Below, piece by piece: positions 1,805-38,405 of a stretch of 38,876 nt of DNA. A model generated the notes under the pieces. That model saw only the letters and a list, made by a program, of their open reading frames with translations. It was not told the DNA's origin and made no database searches. Each line of letters begins with the position of its first letter. Positions within the stretch are counted from its first letter, which is position 1. The translations under genes and the position numbers were made by a program. This stretch comes from a virus (Duplodnaviria; Heunggongvirae; Uroviricota; Caudoviricetes), in the IMG/VR virus record IMGVR_UViG_2526164597_000012. One strand, given 5' to 3'.

Positions 1805-2299
1805 GGCTCGGCGCTGCCCGTTGGTGTGCCCGTTCCATGGCCCTCAGCCACACCGCCAACGGGGTGGCTGAAATGCAATGGTGCAGCATTTTCTTCTGAA
1901 ATGTATCCCAAACTGGCAAAAGCCTACCCCACCAATAAATTACCGGATTTACGGGGAGAATTTATTCGCGGTTGGGATGATGGGCGCGGGGTGGATGCTG
2001 GCCGCGCTTTGCTTAATTGGCAGCCACACACAATTTTGGATCATGCACACTATATGGAATTATGGACCGGGGATGGACTTGCCGCGGGAAGTACACGGGA
2101 AGGAGTAAACCCTGGAATACTGGCTACATACGGGGACGGGGGAATAGTTAAAACAGACGAACCCGGTTTAAATGTGCCTTCCTCACTACGAGCCGTTAGC
2201 TCTCGTAATGTAAAACGGTTTGGTGAAATTAGTGGAAATGTAGGTACAGAAACTCGCCCTCGCAACGTTGCATTTAATTACATCGTAAGAGCCGCATGA
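1781..2299 (+). CDS. Promoterless alternative tail-fibre C-terminal cassette A (Sv-like)
   Basis: Frame open from 1781; begins with the same ~65-aa block (NVGLGEGSALPVGVPVPWP..TPPTGWLKCNGAAFSSEMYP..RGEFIRGWDDGRG) found in the expressed tail fibre, then a unique segment, then conserved ETRPRNVAFNYIVRAA end. Confidence 0.7.
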   Translation, partial: EINVGLGEGSALPVGVPVPWPSATPPTGWLKCNGAAFSSEMYPKLAKAYPTNKLPDLRGEFIRGWDDGRGVDAGRALLNWQPHTILDHAHYMELWTGDGLAAGSTREGVNPGILATYGDGGIVKTDEPGLNVPSSLRAVSSRNVKRFGEISGNVGTETRPRNVAFNYIVRAA

Positions 2300-2768
2300 A
2301 AACGTTGGTTTGGGGGAAGGCTCTGCACTGCCCGTTGGTGTGCCTGTTCCATGGCCCTCAGCCACACCACCAACGGGCTGGCTGAAATGTAACGGTGCAG
2401 CATTTTCTTCTGAAATGTACCCAAATCTGGCAAAGGTTTACCCAACGTTAAAATTACCTGATTTACGCGGTGAGTTTATCCGTGGCTGGGATGATGGGCG
2501 CGGGGTGGATGCCGGAAGGGGCATCTTAAGCATGCAGGGGTGGTTAACAGGAAGTCATTATCATAATATTCGGTCATGGGATGCGTGGGATAACACGGTA
2601 CTGGTGCCAAATGACAAAAGAGGGGATAGTCTGTTGTCGACAGATAATGCCGTCCGGCAAGGTGCAATTAACGGTAGATTTACCAGTCAATACAGAACGG
2701 AATCCTCAGATGGGAATGAAAACCGCCCACGCAATATTGCCTTCAATTATATTGTGAGAACCGCATAA
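2289..2768 (+). CDS. Promoterless alternative tail-fibre C-terminal cassette B (Sv-like)
   Basis: Same conserved N-terminal block and C-terminal ENRPRNIAFNYIVRTA; unique middle; stop overlaps the tfa start (TAATGA). Confidence 0.7.
   Translation, partial: EPHENVGLGEGSALPVGVPVPWPSATPPTGWLKCNGAAFSSEMYPNLAKVYPTLKLPDLRGEFIRGWDDGRGVDAGRGILSMQGWLTGSHYHNIRSWDAWDNTVLVPNDKRGDSLLSTDNAVRQGAINGRFTSQYRTESSDGNENRPRNIAFNYIVRTA
2293..2318. other. Candidate gix-like crossover site B (..GAAAACG TT GGTTTGGGGGAA)
   Basis: Same half-site motif as site A at the equivalent position of cassette B. Confidence 0.4.
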
Positions 2769-3379
2769 TGAATAACGCGATATTAAATGATGACCTTATT
2801 GCCGTACAGGCAGGAAACATCGTCGTTTATAACTATGATGGTGAGACACGGGAATATATTTCCGAATCAACTGAATATCTTGCTGTGGGTGTTGGTATTC
2901 CGGCTAATTCCTGTTTAGATGCCCCAGGCGCACATAAATCTGGCTATGCTATTCGCCGTTCGGAGGATTTAAATTCATGGGAGTATGCGCCAGACCATCG
3001 TGGTGAAACCGTCTATAGCACTGACACGGGAAACACCGAAGAAATCACGGCGCTGGGTGACTACCCGAAAAATACAACCACTATCGCCCCGTTAACACCA
3101 TACGATAAATGGGATGGTGAAAAATGGGTGACAGATACTGAGGTACAACATCGTGCCGCAGTAGAAGCGGCAGAAACCAAGCGCCAGTCACTGGCTGATG
3201 CGGCAATGGATTCCATAAGTCTGATTCAGTTGAAGTTGCGGGCCGGGCGGAAGTTGACGCAGGCAGAAACCACCCGGCTTAATGCCGTGCTGGATTATAT
3301 AGACGCGCTGAACGCAATGGATATAAACATGGCACCAGATATCAACTTGCCGGAAATACCACTGGCATCAGCCAGTTGA
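2768..3379 (+). CDS. Tail fibre assembly protein (Tfa/U-like chaperone)
   Basis: 203 aa; immediately follows cassette B with overlapping stop/start; size, position and sequence style typical of Mu U / lambda Tfa family. Confidence 0.7.
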   Translation: MNNAILNDDLIAVQAGNIVVYNYDGETREYISESTEYLAVGVGIPANSCLDAPGAHKSGYAIRRSEDLNSWEYAPDHRGETVYSTDTGNTEEITALGDYPKNTTTIAPLTPYDKWDGEKWVTDTEVQHRAAVEAAETKRQSLADAAMDSISLIQLKLRAGRKLTQAETTRLNAVLDYIDALNAMDINMAPDINLPEIPLASAS

Positions 3380-3385
3380 ATATAA

Positions 3386-4687
3386 CTAAGCCGCCCTCAC
3401 GATATAGTTAAATGCAATATTGCGGGGGCGGGTTTCACTACCACCTGTGTTACCAATACTTCCTCGTGAATGAAGCGTTGGTGATGGAATCAAACTCCCT
3501 CCTGTATTTGTGGCATCAAGCCCCCTGCCTTGTGTATATGTTTTTTTGAAAATCGTAGCCAACTCCCATTCATCTTTTGTGTCATATCCATCGTTAGCTA
3601 CAACAATATGGCGATGTTTTTCCAACATCCCGTTTTGAATGCTCAATAAAGCGCGTGCCGCATCAATTCCTCGCCCATCATCCCAGCCACGGATAAATTC
3701 TCCGCGTAAATCCGGTAATTTATTGGTGGGGTAGGCTTTTGCCAGTTTGGGGTACATTTCAGAAGAAAATGCTGCACCGTTACATTTCAGCCAGCCCGTT
3801 GGTGGTGTTGCTAAGGGCCATGGAACAGGCACGCCAACGGGCAGTGCAGAACCTTCTCCTAAACCAAGGTAATTGAGGACTTCTTTTATACTGCCCATAG
3901 CGATAATAGCGCGACCAATAGCTGTAAGGGTTGTCAGTGCTGCGCGGTCTGCTCCGGTAAAATAAGGCAACCGATCTGCTGCAGTGGCAAGTCCTGCCAG
4001 AGCAGTGAGCGTGGCATCTGCCGGTTGTTTTCCGTTTGCCAGATCGTATGCAGCCTTGACCGCTTTCGGTGTGGCGGCCAGTATTTCAGACGTGCTGTTG
4101 ATGTCACTGCTCAATTGTACGGTGCCTTTTGCCGTCAGCGAGGCAGCAGGCACTCCCGTTATCTGACTCCACGGGTGAGTGTGGCTGACGGGCGCCTTGC
4201 CGGCTGCAAGGTCGTATGCAGCCTTGACCGCCTTCGGCGTGGCAGCCTCAGTTTCTGATTGACTGTCCGTGGCGCTGCTCAGTTGTACGGTGCCTTTTGC
4301 CGTCAGCGAGGCAGCAGGCACTCCCGTTATCTGACTCCACGGGTGAGTATGGCTGACGGGGGCCTTGCCGGCAGCCAGGTCATATGCAGCCTTGACGGCC
4401 TTTGGTGTGGCGGCCAGCGTTTCAGAGGTGCTGTTGGTGGCACTGCTCAGTTGGGTGAACCCCTTAGCTGTCAGTGTCGCGTCCGGGTGGTTACGGGAAC
4501 GTACGTGTTCAGCCAGTGACTGTGCGGCTTCCTCCGTTTTTTTCTTCAGCCATTTCGTCCTGTTTGCCAGTTGCCGGGGGGCTCGATTTGATATCCCGTC
4601 TGCACCACCCAGAACCGGATCTGATGTCTCCAGTTGATAGATATTTTCTTCCCACTTTTCTGTTTCATTCAGGTTTCCCATAATCAA
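3386..4687 (-). CDS. Tail fibre protein (S-like): constant N-terminal part + currently joined variable C-terminal cassette C
   Basis: 433 aa; internal tandem fibre repeats; C-terminal ~160 aa start with the conserved cassette block (LGLGEGSALPVGVPVPWP...) and end ETRPRNIAFNYIVRAA. Confidence 0.85.
   Translation of the reverse strand: MIMGNLNETEKWEENIYQLETSDPVLGGADGISNRAPRQLANRTKWLKKKTEEAAQSLAEHVRSRNHPDATLTAKGFTQLSSATNSTSETLAATPKAVKAAYDLAAGKAPVSHTHPWSQITGVPAASLTAKGTVQLSSATDSQSETEAATPKAVKAAYDLAAGKAPVSHTHPWSQITGVPAASLTAKGTVQLSSDINSTSEILAATPKAVKAAYDLANGKQPADATLTALAGLATAADRLPYFTGADRAALTTLTAIGRAIIAMGSIKEVLNYLGLGEGSALPVGVPVPWPLATPPTGWLKCNGAAFSSEMYPKLAKAYPTNKLPDLRGEFIRGWDDGRGIDAARALLSIQNGMLEKHRHIVVANDGYDTKDEWELATIFKKTYTQGRGLDATNTGGSLIPSPTLHSRGSIGNTGGSETRPRNIAFNYIVRAA
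3854..3879. other. Candidate gix-like crossover site C inside the tail-fibre gene (inverted relative to sites A and B)
   Basis: Minus-strand ..AATTACC TT GGTTTAGGAGAA at the constant/variable boundary (codons ~273-279). Confidence 0.4.
3960..4480. repeat. Tandem in-frame repeats (~168 bp / 56 aa, ~2.6 copies) within the tail-fibre gene
   Basis: Protein repeats LTAKG..QLSS..SE..AATPKAVKAAYDLA.GK.PVSHTHPWSQITGVPAAS; DNA copies near 4044, 4212, 4381; causes the repeated plus-strand shadow ORFs 4025..4258 and 4259..4519. Confidence 0.75.
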
Positions 4688-6696: not shown

Positions 6697-6750
6697 GGGG
6701 GCAGTATTGCCCCCGTGCGGGAACGCTGATATTAAAGGCGTTTAAAAAGC

Positions 6751-13026: not shown

Positions 13027-13090
13027 GATTGTGCTCCTGTGTAAGTTCAGGGCAGTATGTCGGGAGAAGCGCGTGACGGATATTAAAGGA

Positions 13091-13117
13091 GATTAAGAAG
13101 AAGGGGCCGGAGCCCCT
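13091..13117 (-). terminator. Rho-independent terminator-like hairpin after the 93-aa ORF
   Basis: Minus-strand AGGGGC-TCCG-GCCCCT followed by TCTTCTTAATCTCC. Confidence 0.45.
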
Positions 13118-18964: not shown

Positions 18965-19004
18965 GGAGACAGTTTGTGAGAAATGCAGGCCCGGCGATTT
19001 TAAT
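18965..19004 (-). promoter_or_regulatory. Late-operon promoter/leader motif, copy 2 (upstream of protease/scaffold gene)
   Basis: Minus strand ATTAAAATC-N6-CCTGCATTT-N8-CTGTCTCC; near-identical tripartite motif upstream of the holin-like gene. Confidence 0.5.
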
Positions 19005-19065
19005 CTGCTTTAGAAAACATCAGGGGAGAAGGACAGGGAAAGCAATACGGTGAACCGGAGGCGGT

Positions 19066-26431: not shown

Positions 26432-26471
26432 GGAGACAGCATCACAAATACAGGGCGCGAAGGATTTTAAA
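26432..26471 (-). promoter_or_regulatory. Late-operon promoter/leader motif, copy 1 (upstream of holin-like gene)
   Basis: Minus strand TTTAAAATC-N8-CCTGTATTT-N6-CTGTCTCC, then ACCAGATAA-GGAGAC so that CTGTCTCC can pair with the SD region. Confidence 0.5.
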
Positions 26472-26542
26472 GCGCGTTAAGAGAGCCGGGGATACGGGAT
26501 GTGCAGGATAAACGATGAATTATTCACAGAGGAGAATACGAT

Positions 26543-27271
26543 ATGACGCAGACACTGAATCCGGTCATCACTGTCACCGTGTCCGGTCCTGTGGGCAGCG
26601 GTAAAAGTTACATATTGGCGCGAATAGAGGAAGTGGTGAAACAGGAATTCGGAAACAGCGTCATTGTCGACGCCGCAGACGTGGACGGTGAGCGCCGTAT
26701 GAGTGGGGATGATCTGAGCACATGGCAGAAACCACGGGCTGGCACAGTGATCAGGCTGGAGGAATACACGGGACAGGGCCTGTTGTCATACGGCGAGGAG
26801 CGTATCTGTCGGACGAATGAGCTGCTGGATGTTATATGCCCCACGGGCCGGCAACCCTGGATACTGCCCGATGCACTGCATGCCACCATTGCGGCACTGA
26901 TGACAGTTTACGATCAGGAGCTGCTCATGAAGGAGTTACGTAAACTCACTGGTCAGTCAACAGAATGTTGTTCGTCCCCGAAGTACGGCAAACAGGAACA
27001 CATCCCGATTAACCAGCCTCCCCGGTTCTTCGACGAATACCTTCTGACACCGGAAAATAAAGCTGAGCATGAAGAGATCAAAGCGGCGTTGTTCCGGGAA
27101 ATCAGGAAGATTGCTGAAATGCAACTGGAGGGCGGGCTGGACAGAGTGATGGCGAGAGGAGAATGGGCATCGCTGTTTGAAAGAGTTTCCCCGGAATTAC
27201 TTCCCCTCGCACTGGCTATCGGGATTATGCAGACAGCGGATAAACCTCACTTACGTTCATTAAACACGTAA
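26543..27271 (+). CDS. Accessory P-loop (Walker A GPVGSGKS) protein, function unknown
   Basis: 242 aa; RBS GAGGAG 8 nt upstream; Walker A at residues 15-22 followed closely by hhhhD (VIVDAADVD); diverges from the late operon, outside the conserved Mu-like core. Confidence 0.6.
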   Translation: MTQTLNPVITVTVSGPVGSGKSYILARIEEVVKQEFGNSVIVDAADVDGERRMSGDDLSTWQKPRAGTVIRLEEYTGQGLLSYGEERICRTNELLDVICPTGRQPWILPDALHATIAALMTVYDQELLMKELRKLTGQSTECCSSPKYGKQEHIPINQPPRFFDEYLLTPENKAEHEEIKAALFREIRKIAEMQLEGGLDRVMARGEWASLFERVSPELLPLALAIGIMQTADKPHLRSLNT

Positions 27272-27651
27272 CGCATAATCCGGGATACGCATTCAGCGAT
27301 GACTGCATTTTCACCGGTTTTTACTGCATCCAGAAGTGACTCTTTAAATGGTACGGGCCGGGGCTGCAGAAAGGTCGGCATGGCATTGAGCAGACAGAGC
27401 GTTTTTTCCGTGAGGACGACATCAGCCGCTCCCACAGCCAGCAACTGAGAGTAACGAATATAGCTGTTATCCCGAAGCCATATCAGCGTATCAATAAAAC
27501 ACCGGCACTTTTTCTGGTCGTGATCAACCTGGTCCGGGATATCGAAAAAACCAGAATAAATCAAAACCTGAGGTGCCGGATGCGTGTTCAGTAATCGGCA
27601 GAATATTTTGCCGGTGAGTACATAAAAATCATCATTTAAGGAGTGCATCAT
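27247..27651 (-). CDS. Hypothetical protein (134 aa), antisense gene inside the accessory island
   Basis: Fills the 380-bp gap between two plus-strand genes; tandem ATG ATG start; start codon overlaps the divergent start of 27650..27865; no family recognised. Confidence 0.35.
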   Translation of the reverse strand: MMHSLNDDFYVLTGKIFCRLLNTHPAPQVLIYSGFFDIPDQVDHDQKKCRCFIDTLIWLRDNSYIRYSQLLAVGAADVVLTEKTLCLLNAMPTFLQPRPVPFKESLLDAVKTGENAVIAECVSRIMRYVFNERK

Positions 27652-27865
27652 GAATCCCCGATTAACGTTAACAGAACATCAGCGCCGTGCTGAAGCAGTG
27701 AACAATGTTCTGGAAGATATTATCCGGTTATACCGCGGAGAACTGAGTGTCTGTCGTGCCGCTTTTCATTTTCAGGGAATACAAAAGCAGTTTGATACTT
27801 CTGTTTTTGCAGAAGGTATTACTTATGCCCTGGACCGGATAAGGTCAGAAAATCGCCCCGGATAA
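27650..27865 (+). CDS. Hypothetical small protein (71 aa)
   Basis: Strong RBS AAGGAG 6 nt upstream of ATG; no family recognised. Confidence 0.5.
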   Translation: MNPRLTLTEHQRRAEAVNNVLEDIIRLYRGELSVCRAAFHFQGIQKQFDTSVFAEGITYALDRIRSENRPG

Positions 27866-27919
27866 TCCCTAAACCACATTAACAGAAATCCCGCCATCCC
27901 TGCCGCATCATGAAAGAAC

Positions 27920-27951
27920 GACCAGCCCGGCACCCGAAAGCCGGGCTGGTC
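27920..27951. promoter_or_regulatory. Perfect 12-bp stem / 8-nt loop hairpin in the intergenic region before the methyltransferase gene
   Basis: GACCAGCCCGGC-ACCCGAAA-GCCGGGCTGGTC; no clear U-tract on either strand. Confidence 0.5.
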
Positions 27952-28055
27952 ATCGCCCCACAGGAATGCGCTGTGAGCCGACCAAGGTTCAGTCAGTCTC
28001 GCGAGACCTGACCAGACTGCCATATTTTTTAATAATTGTAAAAGGCTTACAGATT

Positions 28056-28820
28056 ATGAAAATGCAGACATTACCCATCGTGCCGTGGATTGGTGGCAAA
28101 CGCCGCCTTGCAAAACACATTCTGCCGCTGTTTCCGGCGCATGAATGTTATGTGGAGCCGTTTTGTGGGGCAGCAGCGCTCTATTTTCTTAAGACACCCG
28201 GCAAGATCGAAGTCATCAATGATATCAACGGTGAACTGGTGAATCTGTACCGGGTGGTAAAGCATCACCTGGAAGAATTTGTCCGCCAGTTCAAATGGGC
28301 GCTGGTCAGCCGTCAGATCTACAAATGGCTGCAGATCACCCCGGAAGAAACACTGACGGATATCCAGCGTGCGGCACGGTTCTACTACCTTCAGAAGCAG
28401 GCGTTTGGCGGCAAGGTGGCAGAGCACAGCTTCGGTACCTCCACCACATCCCCGCCACGCTTCAACCTGCTACGTATTGAAGAAGAACTGTCAGCGGCAC
28501 ACCTGCGGCTTTCCAGAACAGTCATAGAACACATGGACTGGCAACAGTGCATTGAGCGTTATGATCGTCCGCACACGCTGTTCTACTGCGACCCACCGTA
28601 CCTGGGTACGGAAGGCTATGGTGTGGATTTTCCTGAAGGGAACTACTCGCGGCTGGCAGAGCTGGCCCGGTGCATCAGAGGAAAAATGATAATTTCGGTG
28701 AACGACATCCCGCAGATGCGCGAGGTGTTCACTGGACTGAACATACAGACAGTGAATATCAACTACAGTCTGGCGGGTAAACCCACGCCGCGCCGTGAAC
28801 TGCTAATCTGCAACTTCTGA
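28056..28820 (+). CDS. DNA N6-adenine methyltransferase, Dam-like (orphan)
   Basis: 254 aa; N-terminal EPFCGAAAL (FxGxG-like AdoMet motif) and catalytic DPPY (..FYCDPPYLG..); no adjacent restriction endonuclease gene; start at ATG 28056 with AAAGG upstream. Confidence 0.8.
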   Translation: MKMQTLPIVPWIGGKRRLAKHILPLFPAHECYVEPFCGAAALYFLKTPGKIEVINDINGELVNLYRVVKHHLEEFVRQFKWALVSRQIYKWLQITPEETLTDIQRAARFYYLQKQAFGGKVAEHSFGTSTTSPPRFNLLRIEEELSAAHLRLSRTVIEHMDWQQCIERYDRPHTLFYCDPPYLGTEGYGVDFPEGNYSRLAELARCIRGKMIISVNDIPQMREVFTGLNIQTVNINYSLAGKPTPRRELLICNF

Positions 28821-28850
28821 AACAAAACCGGAAAGCACAATGCTTTCCGG
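28821..28850 (-). terminator. Rho-independent terminator for the repressor transcript (possibly bidirectional)
   Basis: Perfect 10-bp stem CCGGAAAGCA-CAA-TGCTTTCCGG followed on the minus strand by TTTTGTT. Confidence 0.7.
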
Positions 28851-28936
28851 TAAACCAAACAACTTCCACTATGTCACTGGCGATGTTTTCTGAAAGCATC
28901 CAGATCAACCACCTGTCCTTTGTGTCCGGGTCAGTA

Positions 28937-29293
28937 TCAGCCTGCGATTTTTCCTGGTTTTGGCTGAGTATAGAATCGCCCAATCTCAAGAAATGAGCGT
29001 TGTTGGTCTGGTGTCATGTCGTCAAAAGTATCTATTAGTTTTTGTTTTTCTGGGGAAATTTGATTCTGGTTTCTAGTCATACCATCTGTGCTCATTCCAG
29101 TGAGCAACCAATTTACATCAACATTAAACTCTTGATGCATCTTTAACAGAAACTCCCCTCCAGGCATCGCCTTTCCATTTTCAATCTGACTGATACCACC
29201 ATTAGAAATACCTAAACGAGCTGCAAATTCTCTCTGGTTCAACCCTGCTTTCTTCCTCACAGAAATAACGCGCTCTCCTATATCTTTGCTCAT
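28937..29293 (-). CDS. Prophage repressor, XRE-family HTH (c-like)
   Basis: 118 aa; N-terminal HTH ..KKAGLNQREFAARLGISNGGISQIENG..; divergent from the early operon with an operator palindrome between them. Confidence 0.8.
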   Translation of the reverse strand: MSKDIGERVISVRKKAGLNQREFAARLGISNGGISQIENGKAMPGGEFLLKMHQEFNVDVNWLLTGMSTDGMTRNQNQISPEKQKLIDTFDDMTPDQQRSFLEIGRFYTQPKPGKIAG

Positions 29294-29310
29294 AAAAGTG
29301 AATCTCTATC

Positions 29311-29339
29311 TTGATATGCTCATAATTATGAGCAATAAT
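29311..29339 (+). promoter_or_regulatory. Early promoter (Pe-like) with operator in the spacer
   Basis: -35 TTGATA, 17-bp spacer, -10 AATAAT; spacer is the perfect 18-bp palindrome TGCTCATAATTATGAGCA (29317..29334); a further half-site TGCTCATAA overlaps the repressor start codon (29287..29295). Confidence 0.6.
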
Positions 29340-29386
29340 CTAACACATATAAGGCAAACATCATTGCATCAACAAAGGAGACAACG

Positions 29387-29575
29387 ATGACTGCAGAACA
29401 AGTCAAAGCTCTCTTCCGCCAGCGCGGGATCACTTTCACCCGCTGGGCAGAAGAAAACGGCTACAACCGCAATGAGGTATACCGCGTTCTCAACGGGCAG
29501 ACCAAAGCCCGTTACGGTAAATCCCATGAAATCGCCGTGAAGTTGGGACTGAAATCAACAGCTCAGGCGGCCTAA
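29387..29575 (+). CDS. Ner/Cro-like small DNA-binding regulator
   Basis: 62 aa, first gene of early operon opposite the repressor; RBS AAAGGAG; residue pattern reminiscent of Ner-type regulators. Confidence 0.6.
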   Translation: MTAEQVKALFRQRGITFTRWAEENGYNRNEVYRVLNGQTKARYGKSHEIAVKLGLKSTAQAA

Positions 29576-29621
29576 ATATTTTGAGTCTTTGTAAAAGGTT
29601 ATCACATATCGCAAAAGAGGT

Positions 29622-29936
29622 ATGCAGATGAGTAAGACGAATGTTTCAAGCTCCGGCAGTCGCATCCTCCGGGTACTCAAAGCGCTGCGCGGTCATGCCC
29701 TGAACGGTATTTCTAACGGTGAACTGGCGACAGCACTGCACGAGTCACCGGCAAACATCAACCGGGCACTCAACACCCTCATTGAAGAAGGGCTGGCTCT
29801 GAAACTGGAGAACGGACGTTTTGCACCGGGCATCCAGTTACTGCAGATCGCCATGGCCCACAGTAACGAGATGGCACGTGCACAGGATCGTATTAACGAA
29901 ATTAACCAACGTGTCATTTCAGGTAGTCGTTTGTAA
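29622..29936 (+). CDS. Winged-helix DNA-binding protein
   Basis: 104 aa; ..ISNGELATALHESPANINRALNTLIEEGL.. HTH-like; true start may be the second ATG at 29628. Confidence 0.5.
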   Translation: MQMSKTNVSSSGSRILRVLKALRGHALNGISNGELATALHESPANINRALNTLIEEGLALKLENGRFAPGIQLLQIAMAHSNEMARAQDRINEINQRVISGSRL

Positions 29937-29946
29937 GGAGTAATCA

Positions 29947-30867
29947 ATGGGACGTACCAAATCACCGATTAACACTGAACTGAACGCCGATGTACCGCTG
30001 TCGGATGATCTCAACGTCAGCCTGAATGCCATGACACAGCATCGCATGGAGATCATGCAGCAGTTTGGTGATGGACTGCCTTATGAACGTGAACGCATCG
30101 TTCACGAAGCACGTTTTTATATGGCGCAGAGTGCTGAATCTATGTTGGAAGCGGGTAAGCGGCTGATCATCTTAAAAGAAAATGAACCGCATGGTGATTT
30201 CACAAATATTCTGGAAAACGACCTCGGATTAGCACCACAGGTAGCTCGTCGCATGATGCAGGCCAGCGTGAAATTTCTCGGCAATGGAGATGAACAGCCA
30301 AAACGCTCAGCGCTGAGCGTTTTGGGAAAAACCAAGTTATATGAACTGATGGTTCTGGATGACGAAGAACTCGACGCATTAGCTGATGGTGGAACCGTCG
30401 CCGGTGCAACGCTTGATGATATTGATCGCATGACCAGCCGCGAACTGAAGGCCGCCCTGCGTGAAGCGCGCGAAACCAACGCAGCTCAGCAACAGGTGCT
30501 TGCCGGAAAGGACGAAAAAATCAACGAACTGGCCACAAAACTGGAGAAGAAATCGCGCCTGCAACCTCCGCCGCCAGACGAAGAACTGAAAAAATTGCGG
30601 GCGGAAGTGACGGCATTAGCGGTTGAGGCCGAATCGGCTATCGCCGTCCGGCTGTCCAGTGTTTTTGAGACCCTGTGTGAATACTGCACCAAAAACATGA
30701 TCGATACCCCCAGAGATTTCATGGCCGGTCTGGTCTGCCAGATTGAACGCAGTGTTCATGCATTACGTGAGACGTTTGACCTTGAGGCCGCTCCATCGGG
30801 TAACGATGCCCCCGCCTGGCTGACCGAACCGGAACCTGAAATCAACCGACCGGAGGATATGCAGTAA
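29947..30867 (+). CDS. Conserved early-region hypothetical protein (coiled-coil)
   Basis: 306 aa; coiled-coil/charged C-terminal half; no confident family. Confidence 0.45.
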   Translation: MGRTKSPINTELNADVPLSDDLNVSLNAMTQHRMEIMQQFGDGLPYERERIVHEARFYMAQSAESMLEAGKRLIILKENEPHGDFTNILENDLGLAPQVARRMMQASVKFLGNGDEQPKRSALSVLGKTKLYELMVLDDEELDALADGGTVAGATLDDIDRMTSRELKAALREARETNAAQQQVLAGKDEKINELATKLEKKSRLQPPPPDEELKKLRAEVTALAVEAESAIAVRLSSVFETLCEYCTKNMIDTPRDFMAGLVCQIERSVHALRETFDLEAAPSGNDAPAWLTEPEPEINRPEDMQ

Positions 30868-35073: not shown

Positions 35074-35268
35074 ATGATATTTAAATGTATTCAGTGCGAG
35101 AGGGATATAACAGCCCTGCGTTTTCACAGCGCCATCGCCGTGATGTCCGGTAAGTATCACATACCTGCAGTACGTGTCACCCTGGTCTGCCCGTACTGCA
35201 GCCAGCATTTTTCGGCGGACGTGCCCGTCATGGAATTCTCCCGCCCTGACAGGGAGGACGCGCAATGA
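35074..35268 (+). CDS. Small zinc-ribbon-like protein
   Basis: 64 aa with CxxC...CxxC (CIQCE ... CPYCS). Confidence 0.45.
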   Translation: MIFKCIQCERDITALRFHSAIAVMSGKYHIPAVRVTLVCPYCSQHFSADVPVMEFSRPDREDAQ

Positions 35269-37177: not shown

Positions 37178-37627
37178 ATGCAGAAAAAACGCCTGATACA
37201 GCTTATCCATATTGCCCGTAATGAACTGGGTATGGATGAAGACACCTACCGCCAGATGTTACAGGGGCTGACCGGTAAAGCCTCAACCAAAGGAATGGAT
37301 ACCACACAACTAAACTGCGTGCTGGAATCCATGAAAAAGAAAGGCTTTCGCGTTAAACCAGCCAGAAAAGCCAGCTCCGGTTTACCGCTGGATAACCATC
37401 CGCAGTCCAGGAAAATTCGTGCGCTATGGCTTGAAATGGCTGCTGCCGGCATTGTTCGTGACCGTTCAGAAAATGCATTAGCGAGGTGGATCAAGCGGGA
37501 AACGGGCATCAGCGCCCTGCGCTGGCTCAGTACTGAACAGGCAAGCAGTGTTATTGAGAAACTGAAGAAGTGGCAGCGCAGAGCTGCGGGAGTCAAACAT
37601 GAGCGACCTGAATCAGTTTCGAAGTAA
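37178..37627 (+). CDS. gemA: GemA-like regulatory protein (Mu gp16 family)
   Basis: 149 aa; N-terminal ..KRLIQLIHIARNELGMDEDTYR.. resembles Mu GemA; located just upstream of mor. Confidence 0.65.
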   Translation: MQKKRLIQLIHIARNELGMDEDTYRQMLQGLTGKASTKGMDTTQLNCVLESMKKKGFRVKPARKASSGLPLDNHPQSRKIRALWLEMAAAGIVRDRSENALARWIKRETGISALRWLSTEQASSVIEKLKKWQRRAAGVKHERPESVSK

Positions 37628-37988
37628 GGGGCCGGAACTCCTGGTGGAACTGGCACAGCATACCTCTGAGACCGTTCGCGAGATTATTGATATTGAGCCC
37701 GAAGTTGCCGACCAGATTGGTCAGGCCGTCGCGAACCGAATGATGCAGGTCTGGGGCGGGCAAAACGTTTATTTCCCGATGGGCATGGTATGGAAGGTCA
37801 GTCAGCGCGACCGGGAAATCTTCAGGGAGTTTAACGGACGCAACCACCACGAACTGGCCCGCAAATTTGGTGTTTCGCTTCAGTGGGTCTACAGCGTGGT
37901 TAAGCGGGTAAGAAAAGAAGAACTGGATCGGATGCAGGGCAAGCTATTTGCTGATGAACCCGATGCAGATACGGAGAAAAAAGAGTAA
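37599..37988 (+). CDS. mor: Mor/C-family transcriptional activator (middle/late gene activator)
   Basis: 129 aa; C-terminal ..FNGRNHHELARKFGVSLQWVYSVVKRVRK.. matches Mor/C HTH region (Mu Mor ..FNGRNVSELTTRYGVTFNTVYKAIRRMRR.. as recalled). Confidence 0.8.
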   Translation: MSDLNQFRSKGPELLVELAQHTSETVREIIDIEPEVADQIGQAVANRMMQVWGGQNVYFPMGMVWKVSQRDREIFREFNGRNHHELARKFGVSLQWVYSVVKRVRKEELDRMQGKLFADEPDADTEKKE

Positions 37989-38150: not shown

Positions 38151-38156
38151 CCAAAT
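38151..38156. repeat. Target-site duplication, right copy (CCAAAT)
   Basis: See left copy. Confidence 0.7.
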
Positions 38157-38365
38157 ACAAAAACATCGCGGGTGTTGAAGAAAAATTAACCTATACAGAT
38201 ACCTACGCGCAGGAAAACGTGACTATCGATATGGAAAAAGTGGATTTTAAAGCCCTGCAGGGTATTTCAGGAATCAACGTTTCTGCTGAAGATGCCAAAA
38301 AAGGTATCACTATGGCGCAAATGGAACTGGTGATGAAAGCCGCTGGTTTTAAAGAAGTGAAATAA
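38151..38365 (+). pseudogene. yehR: yehR 3' fragment (resumes in frame after the prophage)
   Basis: ..YKNIAGVEEKLTYTDTYAQENVTIDMEKVDFKALQGISGINVSAEDAKKGITMAQMELVMKAAGFKEVK*. Confidence 0.8.
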
Positions 38366-38405
38366 TCTGTCGGCGGCCATGTTTCGCATGGCCGCCATAC
38401 CCGTC

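Follow-up and report, generated by a model that had tools for sequence, protein, structure and literature searches.

A catalogued orphan adenine methyltransferase of BcepMu-like prophages and the conserved structured element upstream of its gene, a possible off-switch

In the com-mom system of phage Mu, a DNA modification gene is held off by an RNA stem that masks its ribosome-binding site (RBS) region and needs remodeling (PMC3299994). Mu-like prophages without mom carry, at the mom position downstream of com, the non-specific Dam-related enzymes Hia5, Hin1523 and Nma1821 (Drozdz et al., 2012; PMC3299994). Prophage Phi2 of the Escherichia coli ST131 strain EC958 encodes M.EcoMIV (EC958_1101), described as a D12-class type II orphan methyltransferase and a predicted Dam homolog (Forde et al., 2015, mBio; PMC4659465). 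Here we examine the M.EcoMIV gene in IMG/VR virus record IMGVR_UViG_2526164597_000012, a stretch of 38,876 nucleotides referred to below as the window, in which the gene occupies positions 28056..28820 of the + strand. We also examine a conserved, structured non-coding element of ~150 nt directly upstream of the gene (27908..28055), which could be read on either strand.

The original prediction, made from the letters of the window, described the gene as an orphan Dam-type N6-adenine methyltransferase of a prophage. Its 254-aa product is WP_000783854.1, and the enzyme was already known at that time, having been named and catalogued as M.EcoMIV. REBASE lists it as putative type IIA (asymmetric-site), as cited by Forde et al., and no recognition site is on record for any homologue of more than 65% identity (PMC4659465). 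Our literature search found no later published characterization or activity of M.EcoMIV, and nothing usable on the target specificity of its close homologues (phiE125/phi1026b gp26-27, phiHAP-1/VHML).

Our analysis makes it probable that the protein is an active stand-alone alpha-class N6-adenine methyltransferase, an accessory of enterobacterial BcepMu-like phages with an anti-restriction role in lytic growth, whose leader would act as an off-switch. The methyltransferase would be silent in the lysogen and produced in lytic growth, when it would methylate progeny phage DNA, an anti-restriction "self-vaccination" functionally analogous to the action of Mom or Hia5, and the upstream element would be the translational or antisense off-switch.

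The open reading frame (ORF) is real, and both motifs named in the original prediction are found where they had been placed. The S-adenosylmethionine (AdoMet)-binding motif I, EPFCGAAAL, is encoded at 28155..28181 on the + strand (aa 34-42) and has the FxGxA form. The catalytic motif IV, DPPY, is encoded at 28590..28601 on the same strand (aa 179-182). A match to Pfam family PF02086 (MethyltransfD12) spans the full length of the protein with 102 bits against a cutoff of 22 (E=6e-29), so this is not a chance ORF. The Shine-Dalgarno sequence AAAGG (28041..28045, + strand) stands 10 nt before the ATG at 28056, and the same ATG is chosen by PGAP. A longer form starting at 27966 (284 aa, in the PhiKM record) was considered and rejected because Klebsiella phage KP12 has a 1-nt frame-breaking indel there.

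The order of the motifs in the protein, with motif I N-terminal, the target-recognition region in the middle and motif IV C-terminal, is the D12/alpha-class layout. An AlphaFold2 model built with 84 relatives as input reached a predicted local distance difference test score (pLDDT) of 92.5. Foldseek searches with this model gave template modeling (TM) scores of 0.80 to EcoDam (0.81 for 2g1p_A and 0.80 for 4rtj_A), 0.79 to DpnM and 0.79 to 7m6b. These three are also the nearest solved relatives in sequence and profile searches of the PDB. Together, the model and the structure searches predict a Dam-type Rossmann fold with an inserted DNA-binding domain. In the alignment of the 84 relatives, G38, D179, P180, P181 and Y182 are invariant.

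By sequence and by model, the protein is thus classed as a D12/alpha-class N6-adenine DNA methyltransferase with a predicted Dam fold. The gene is intact and of the N6-methyladenine type, as had been predicted, with motif I and DPPY both present and the catalytic motif not inactivated. It is under strong purifying selection, with a ratio of nonsynonymous to synonymous substitution rates (dN/dS) of 0.05-0.11 against enterobacterial orthologues, at synonymous sites that are saturated (dS >1). Given the family assignment, the confident model, the invariant motif residues and the low dN/dS, the enzyme is almost certainly functional.

Some relatives (P0123, P0141, P0186 and P0235 among them) are proteins of 800-2500 aa in which this methyltransferase domain is repeated two to four times or joined to other domains; they are presumably multi-methyltransferase proteins of phages and plasmids.

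The protein is widespread. WP_000783854.1 is annotated at the equivalent position in CFS3292 (100% identity with the window from 27000 to 30000) and in EC958 at 1031787-1032551. The prophage in EC958 extends from an invertible tail-fiber segment (1005540-1007607) to Mor at 1041719, and the EC958 genome paper assigns that segment to Phi2 (PMC4134206). The gene is present in 526 of 5426 complete E. coli genomes, with an intact coding-sequence annotation in the listed records. Relatives of 85-88% identity are common in Salmonella, Citrobacter, Klebsiella and Enterobacter. At ~60-66% identity, relatives are found in the Burkholderia phages phi1026b and vB_E228, in Halomonas phiHAP-1 and in one Acinetobacter phage.

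We then considered what the enzyme recognizes. EcoDam reportedly reads GATC through K9, L122, R124 and P134, together with N120, a set attributed to Horton and colleagues (2006). Recognition residues were compared by aligning the methyltransferase and 95 family representatives with EcoDam, the EcoDam contacts being those just given. In this alignment K9 corresponds to P10, N120 to G118, L122 to K120 and R124 to A122, and P134 falls in a gap. The positions aligned to K9, N120, L122 and R124 are variable within the methyltransferase family. The sole contact retained is the aromatic intercalator, EcoDam Y119 aligning with F117, which is 92% conserved in the family. As the residues with which Dam reads GATC are absent, the target is probably not canonical GATC. 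T4 Dam reads GATC with different residues, so that a GATC target, though not predicted here, is conceivable.

The profile models give a similar picture. The methyltransferase passes the Dam subfamily model TIGR00571 marginally (116.6 versus 114.85 bits) and fails the Dam equivalog model NF008152 by a wide gap (67 bits against a cutoff of 441; both NCBIfam). It is 24% identical to EcoDam. The description as Dam-type therefore holds for fold and family and does not extend to equivalence with Dam, given the failed equivalog and the replaced GATC contacts. Since GATC specificity is not implied by the sequence, the DpnI/MboI assay suggested with the original prediction is not implied either.

The strongest of the competing explanations is nevertheless that the protein is a phage Dam isozyme acting on GATC, comparable to the Dam enzymes of T4, T2 and P1. 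Such an enzyme would supplement host Dam while phage DNA is rapidly replicated in the lytic cycle, for example as a guard against MutH cleavage or for the sake of packaging or regulation. In a lysogen with an intact host dam gene, GATC methylation by the phage enzyme would look the same as that of the host. The narrow pass of TIGR00571, the conserved intercalator, the GATC specificity of the best solved relatives by both sequence and fold (DpnM and EcoDam) and the naming of the protein as a predicted Dam homolog (PMC4659465) are consistent with this role. However, it has to accommodate P, G, K and A at the family-variable positions aligned with K9, N120, L122 and R124, the failed equivalog model, the 24% identity to EcoDam and the asymmetric site implied by the REBASE type IIA label. 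We therefore regard a Dam isozyme as unlikely.

In the prophage itself (1151-38100) GATC is rarer than expected, with 91 sites observed versus ~142 by base composition, in agreement with the GATC depletion reported for EC958 mobile elements.

Returning to our preferred reading of a lytic anti-restriction enzyme under a leader off-switch, we examined the non-coding element upstream of the gene. Between the E. coli type and the Klebsiella type, the element is 84% identical although synonymous sites are saturated (dS ~1.1). RNAalifold, run on a MAFFT alignment of 18 enterobacterial loci, predicts four hairpins: H1 (27920-27951), H2 (27959-27975), H3 (~27985-28018), which holds the palindrome GTCTCGCGAGAC at 27996-28007, and H4 (28026-28043), the 3' arm of which takes in part of the Shine-Dalgarno sequence. 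In this alignment, the share of paired cells is 94.3%, compared with 87.8% for shuffled versions and no more than 47% for slid controls, and 11 pairs have substitutions on both sides.

We built a sequence profile and a covariance model from the 18-locus alignment, and these place the element directly 5' of the methyltransferase in ~60 of 78 loci. Carriers include Methylophilaceae, Nitrosomonas, Iodobacter, Chromobacterium, Cupriavidus, Methylophaga and a Francisella metagenome-assembled genome, as well as many Burkholderia and Paraburkholderia loci. At locus L008 the copy lies at 3838-3994. In phi1026b the element fills the gap between Rz and gp26. In the alignment of all loci (A4), both sides vary at 32 of 34 pairs, and the share of paired cells is 90.7% versus 70.6% in shuffles. 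No Rfam family was matched at its curated threshold by the window copy or by the copies of 12 further loci. Judged by these comparisons, the element is a newly noticed structure of four predicted, covarying hairpins that travels with the methyltransferase family across phage types.

One segment of the element suggests how it may act on the gene. The sequence CUGUGAGCC (27971..27979, + strand), in the 3' arm of H2, is complementary to GGCUUACAG (28044-28052), an anti-RBS target between the Shine-Dalgarno sequence, which it adjoins, and the AUG. RNAalifold predicts a long-range helix between the two. The helix is 81% paired versus at most 46% in slid controls and is rich in G.U pairs, a pairing that holds on the + strand alone. 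Among distant members the three partners vary in concert, as CTGCAAG/CTTGCAG and as CTGCAAACC/GGTTTGTAG. Taken together, the features on the + strand look like those of a leader that switches translation of the methyltransferase, in which segment 27971-27979 would pair either within H2 or with the translation-initiation region.

Other features point to the - strand. Strands were compared by counts of G.U versus A.C pairs, by single-sequence minimum free energy and by RNAalifold on both strands. Folding is more stable for the - strand in 46 of 64 element copies, the 64 including three - strand hits, and RNAalifold gives -34.8 kcal/mol on the - strand versus -18.5 on the + strand. On the - strand H2 reaches 12 bp through G.U pairs. 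H1 followed by the pyrimidine- and U-rich tract GUUCUUU (27913..27951, - strand) has the shape of an intrinsic terminator, and every locus retains the purine tract before H1, the counterpart of this U-rich tract on the opposite strand. This segment could be either the end of an antisense RNA resembling a counter-transcribed RNA (ctRNA) or an insulator before the lysis operon.

The - strand also resembles a described RNA. RF00236 (ctRNA_pGA1), with a gathering score of 45 bits, gives 44.4 bits (E=5.8e-8) for the phi1026b copy and 30.7 bits for the L030 copy, in both cases on the - strand. The window copy gave no hit to RF00236 at E up to 10, none of 12 further loci did so at the gathering threshold, and no element copy tested reached the gathering score.

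We hypothesize that the leader and a counter-transcript are both transcribed as a cis-antisense pair, which would reconcile the two sets of strand signals. A ctRNA-like RNA from the opposite strand would then set the choice between the two pairings or trigger decay. Putting enzyme and element together, we tentatively entertain a broader possibility. The element may be a riboregulator, combining an H2/anti-RBS switch with a ctRNA-like antisense RNA, that silences widespread phage orphan methyltransferases in lysogens and is released on induction; the enzyme may be non-GATC or relaxed in specificity, the Mom-equivalent of BcepMu-like phages.

Several points weigh against the preferred reading. 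The closest solved relatives of the enzyme, DpnM and EcoDam, are all GATC enzymes. The all-loci alignment was fitted to the model, so its covariation statistics lean to the modeled structure. The strand signals conflict, G.U pairs favoring the + strand while folding energy, U-tract and RF00236 resemblance favor the - strand. A sigma-70 scan and inspection gave only weak, non-conserved matches and no convincing promoter for either RNA. A Mor/C-type late promoter for the methyltransferase, on the pattern of Pmom, was considered and rejected, the copy of the late-promoter-like motif (described below) at 27869-27882 being degenerate and pointing to the - strand.

The terminator shape of H1 also admits a simpler role for the upstream structure, that of a transcription insulator only, a - strand terminator shielding the lysis operon from read-through. 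Both H1 and the U-rich tract of the - strand are conserved, and in the ancestral layout the late lysis promoter and the holin gene lie immediately downstream on that strand. Yet the element also accompanies the methyltransferase where no lysis operon is downstream, as in phi1026b, where it lies between Rz and the methyltransferase with all on one strand. Moreover, four covarying hairpins exceed the needs of a terminator, and there is covariation between one arm and the region where methyltransferase translation starts. An insulator without further function is accordingly quite unlikely in our judgment.

Orphan methyltransferases can regulate genes. The enzyme could thus be an epigenetic regulator of host or prophage genes in the lysogen, a form of lysogenic conversion and a role that the original prediction had put forward. 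The position of the gene in the immunity region, beside the repressor and outside the late operons, would suit it. In EC958, however, transcription of the identical gene is significantly below that of dam (reverse transcription PCR, mid-log growth in lysogeny broth), and the single-molecule real-time (SMRT) methylome of the lysogen contains no motif assignable to M.EcoMIV (PMC4659465). These results, obtained under laboratory conditions, argue against such a role, as does the predicted masking of the RBS by the structured leader. We consider a regulatory function in the lysogen improbable.

The genes around the methyltransferase bear on its status as an orphan. Upstream of the element lie genes for a 242-aa P-loop protein with the motif GPVGSGKS (26543-27271, + strand; PHROG 3787), a 134-aa protein (27247-27651, - strand; PHROG 2266) and a 71-aa protein (27650-27865, + strand; PHROG 4490). 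No nuclease domain was found in the three products with Pfam, NCBIfam, PHROGs and PADLOC, nor in 10 neighboring proteins from related enterobacterial loci. Endonucleases are hard to detect by profile, and the absence of a conserved partner is a stronger argument than a missing domain match.

In 16 of 17 enterobacterial loci the methyltransferase gene lies between the holin gene and the immunity and early genes of BcepMu-like prophages; at the remaining locus (L011) the holin side is missing and just the early genes are left. The genes that flank it vary among these loci. The holin directly faces the methyltransferase in Photorhabdus, Xenorhabdus, Brenneria and Symbiopectobacterium, and a different gene stands there in KP12, Trabulsiella and Erwinia. 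Nucleotide similarity to the Klebsiella element is limited to the methyltransferase gene and ~145 nt upstream. Judged by gene content, the methyltransferase has no conserved nuclease partner and is not part of a type II restriction-modification system. The statement that no endonuclease gene is adjacent is borne out by both the domain searches and the comparison of loci.

Only the E. coli lineage has the three upstream genes (26543-27865) as an insertion separating the late promoter from the methyltransferase leader. The start codons of the 134-aa and 71-aa ORFs are divergent and overlap, leaving no room for promoters, and one of the two ORFs may therefore not be a real gene.

That the methyltransferase is the modification half of a cryptic restriction or defense module with these 242-, 134- and 71-aa proteins is, in our view, very improbable: the trio has no assigned function, the P-loop protein has weak matches to AAA_30, mad8 and Csx3 (E ~2e-3 to 7e-3) and the best PADLOC model for the methyltransferase carries the label MTase_II, but the trio is absent from related loci, which share only the methyltransferase and its leader, and the neighbors examined hold no nuclease domain.

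The window contains a BcepMu-like (genus Bcepmuvirus) transposable prophage of ~37.1 kb (~1074-38150), confirming that the gene is inside a prophage and specifying its type as Mu-like without com or mom. The 3 kb from 27000 to 30000 are 100% identical to Escherichia phage PhiKM. The prophage encodes a DDE transposase, an ExeA-type B protein, Gam, GemA, Mor, lysis, head and tail proteins, an invertible tail-fiber segment and a Gin-type invertase. It splits the lipoprotein gene yehR (DUF1307) after codon ...PLSAK, leaving parts at 809-1072 and 38156-38366, and a CCAAA(T) duplication borders it on both sides (1068-1073 and 38151-38156). The same phage lies beside ycaL in EC958 and between malZ and proY in CFS3292, differing insertion sites being as expected of a transposable phage.

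The methyltransferase gene stands in the middle of the prophage, between a divergent lysis/late operon (holin start ~26412, - strand) and the immunity region. The latter comprises the convergent gene for a 118-aa HTH_3/CI-type repressor (28937..29293, - strand; Pfam, NCBIfam and PHROGs) and, beyond it, a Ner-like gene of the BcepMu gp16 type (from 29387, + strand). A hairpin with an 11-bp stem at 28827..28851 separates the methyltransferase and repressor genes. On the - strand it is followed by UUUGUUU (tail TTTGTTTCAG) and forms an intrinsic terminator for transcription of the repressor gene. The sequence after it on the + strand is TAAACCAAAC (also given as UAAACCAAAC), and it is scored as a terminator on the - strand only. 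The terminator thought to be shared by the two convergent genes is thus a hairpin between them, as described, with its T-tract on the repressor strand only. By its predicted form it is unidirectional, ending the repressor transcript, and is not a proper terminator for the methyltransferase strand.

Two further features of the prophage were noted. The Gin-type serine invertase (1152-1919, - strand) adjoins the invertible tail-fiber segment (1826-4687), which carries alternative collar-domain C-termini and tail-fiber assembly genes and matches the Phi2 inversion described for EC958 (PMC4134206). A late-promoter-like motif, TTAA-N6-TTAA-wATC with CTGyCyCC ~24 nt further on, precedes the holin, head, tail and baseplate operons. 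A motif scan located its copies at 26467-26480, 19000-19013, 13083-13096 and 6732-6745, all on the - strand. TTAA-N6-TTAA with at most 1 mismatch is enriched in the window (18 occurrences versus 7.05 +/- 2.3 expected) and probably serves the Mor-family activator (37599-37988) as its binding dyad.

The original prediction also proposed that the enzyme substitutes for a missing mom-type modification. The right end of the prophage is the Gin-type invertase followed by host DNA, and no com or mom gene was found in the prophage. No match to Zn_ribbon_Com (PF10122) was found in the prophage either, the sole small ORF with a CxxC...CxxC pattern (35074-35268, + strand; 64 aa, early region), a candidate Com-like regulator, being rejected for want of that match. 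The Hia5/Hin1523 family was represented in our comparison by the com-linked gp53 of Haemophilus phage SuMu, which we take to be a member. This protein has negligible similarity to the methyltransferase (BLASTP E=0.023, only around DPPY). We rejected membership in the Hia5/Hin1523 family because of the gene's position, the lack of com and the sequence comparison, in which gp53 served as proxy. A non-specific enzyme of the M.EcoGII type was also rejected, M.EcoGII being of the beta class. The idea of a mom substitute therefore survives as a plausible functional analogy in a prophage without mom, and its extension to the com-linked family does not.

As an enzyme, the methyltransferase is ordinary, with a REBASE entry and a presence in about one tenth of complete E. 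coli genomes, the pandemic ST131 lineage included. Its target is still of interest ten years after its naming, and the residues discussed above argue against a simple GATC enzyme. Its silence in the lysogen gains a concrete candidate cause, a conserved, covarying RNA structure that overlaps the RBS and is carried along with the gene among unrelated phages of beta- and gamma-proteobacteria. If this holds true, phage anti-restriction methylation would be under the control of a new RNA motif, which would also explain why such prophage methyltransferases can be invisible in routine methylome surveys.

Compared with known enzymes, the methyltransferase resembles EcoDam in fold (TM 0.80), in the order of motif I, target-recognition region and DPPY, and in the aromatic intercalator, and differs from it in sequence, in lacking equivalents of K9, N120, L122 and R124, and in failing the Dam equivalog model. 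Like Hia5, Hin1523 and Nma1821, it is a Dam-related DPPY enzyme of a Mu-like prophage without mom, where the presumed role of those enzymes is broad protection from restriction. Unlike Hia5 and Hin1523, it lies centrally in its prophage and has no com partner. With M.EcoMIV of EC958 it shares accession, BcepMu-like prophage and neighbors, with no difference in the protein; the prophages differ in being inserted beside ycaL in EC958 and in yehR in the window. The upstream structured element and the recognition residues are not treated in the description of M.EcoMIV (Forde et al., 2015; PMC4659465).

The element likewise has described counterparts. It resembles ctRNA_pGA1 (RF00236) in having, on the - strand, an extended hairpin, a GC-rich hairpin and a U-tract, and in being encoded opposite the leader of the gene that would be controlled. 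It differs in being longer, in adding H3 and H4 and in scoring below the gathering threshold. As in Mu com-mom, a DNA modification gene of a transposable phage would be kept off with its RBS region masked by an RNA stem. In contrast to Mu, there is no Com protein here, the enzyme is unrelated to Mom, and the predicted RNA combines four hairpins with a three-way alternative pairing.

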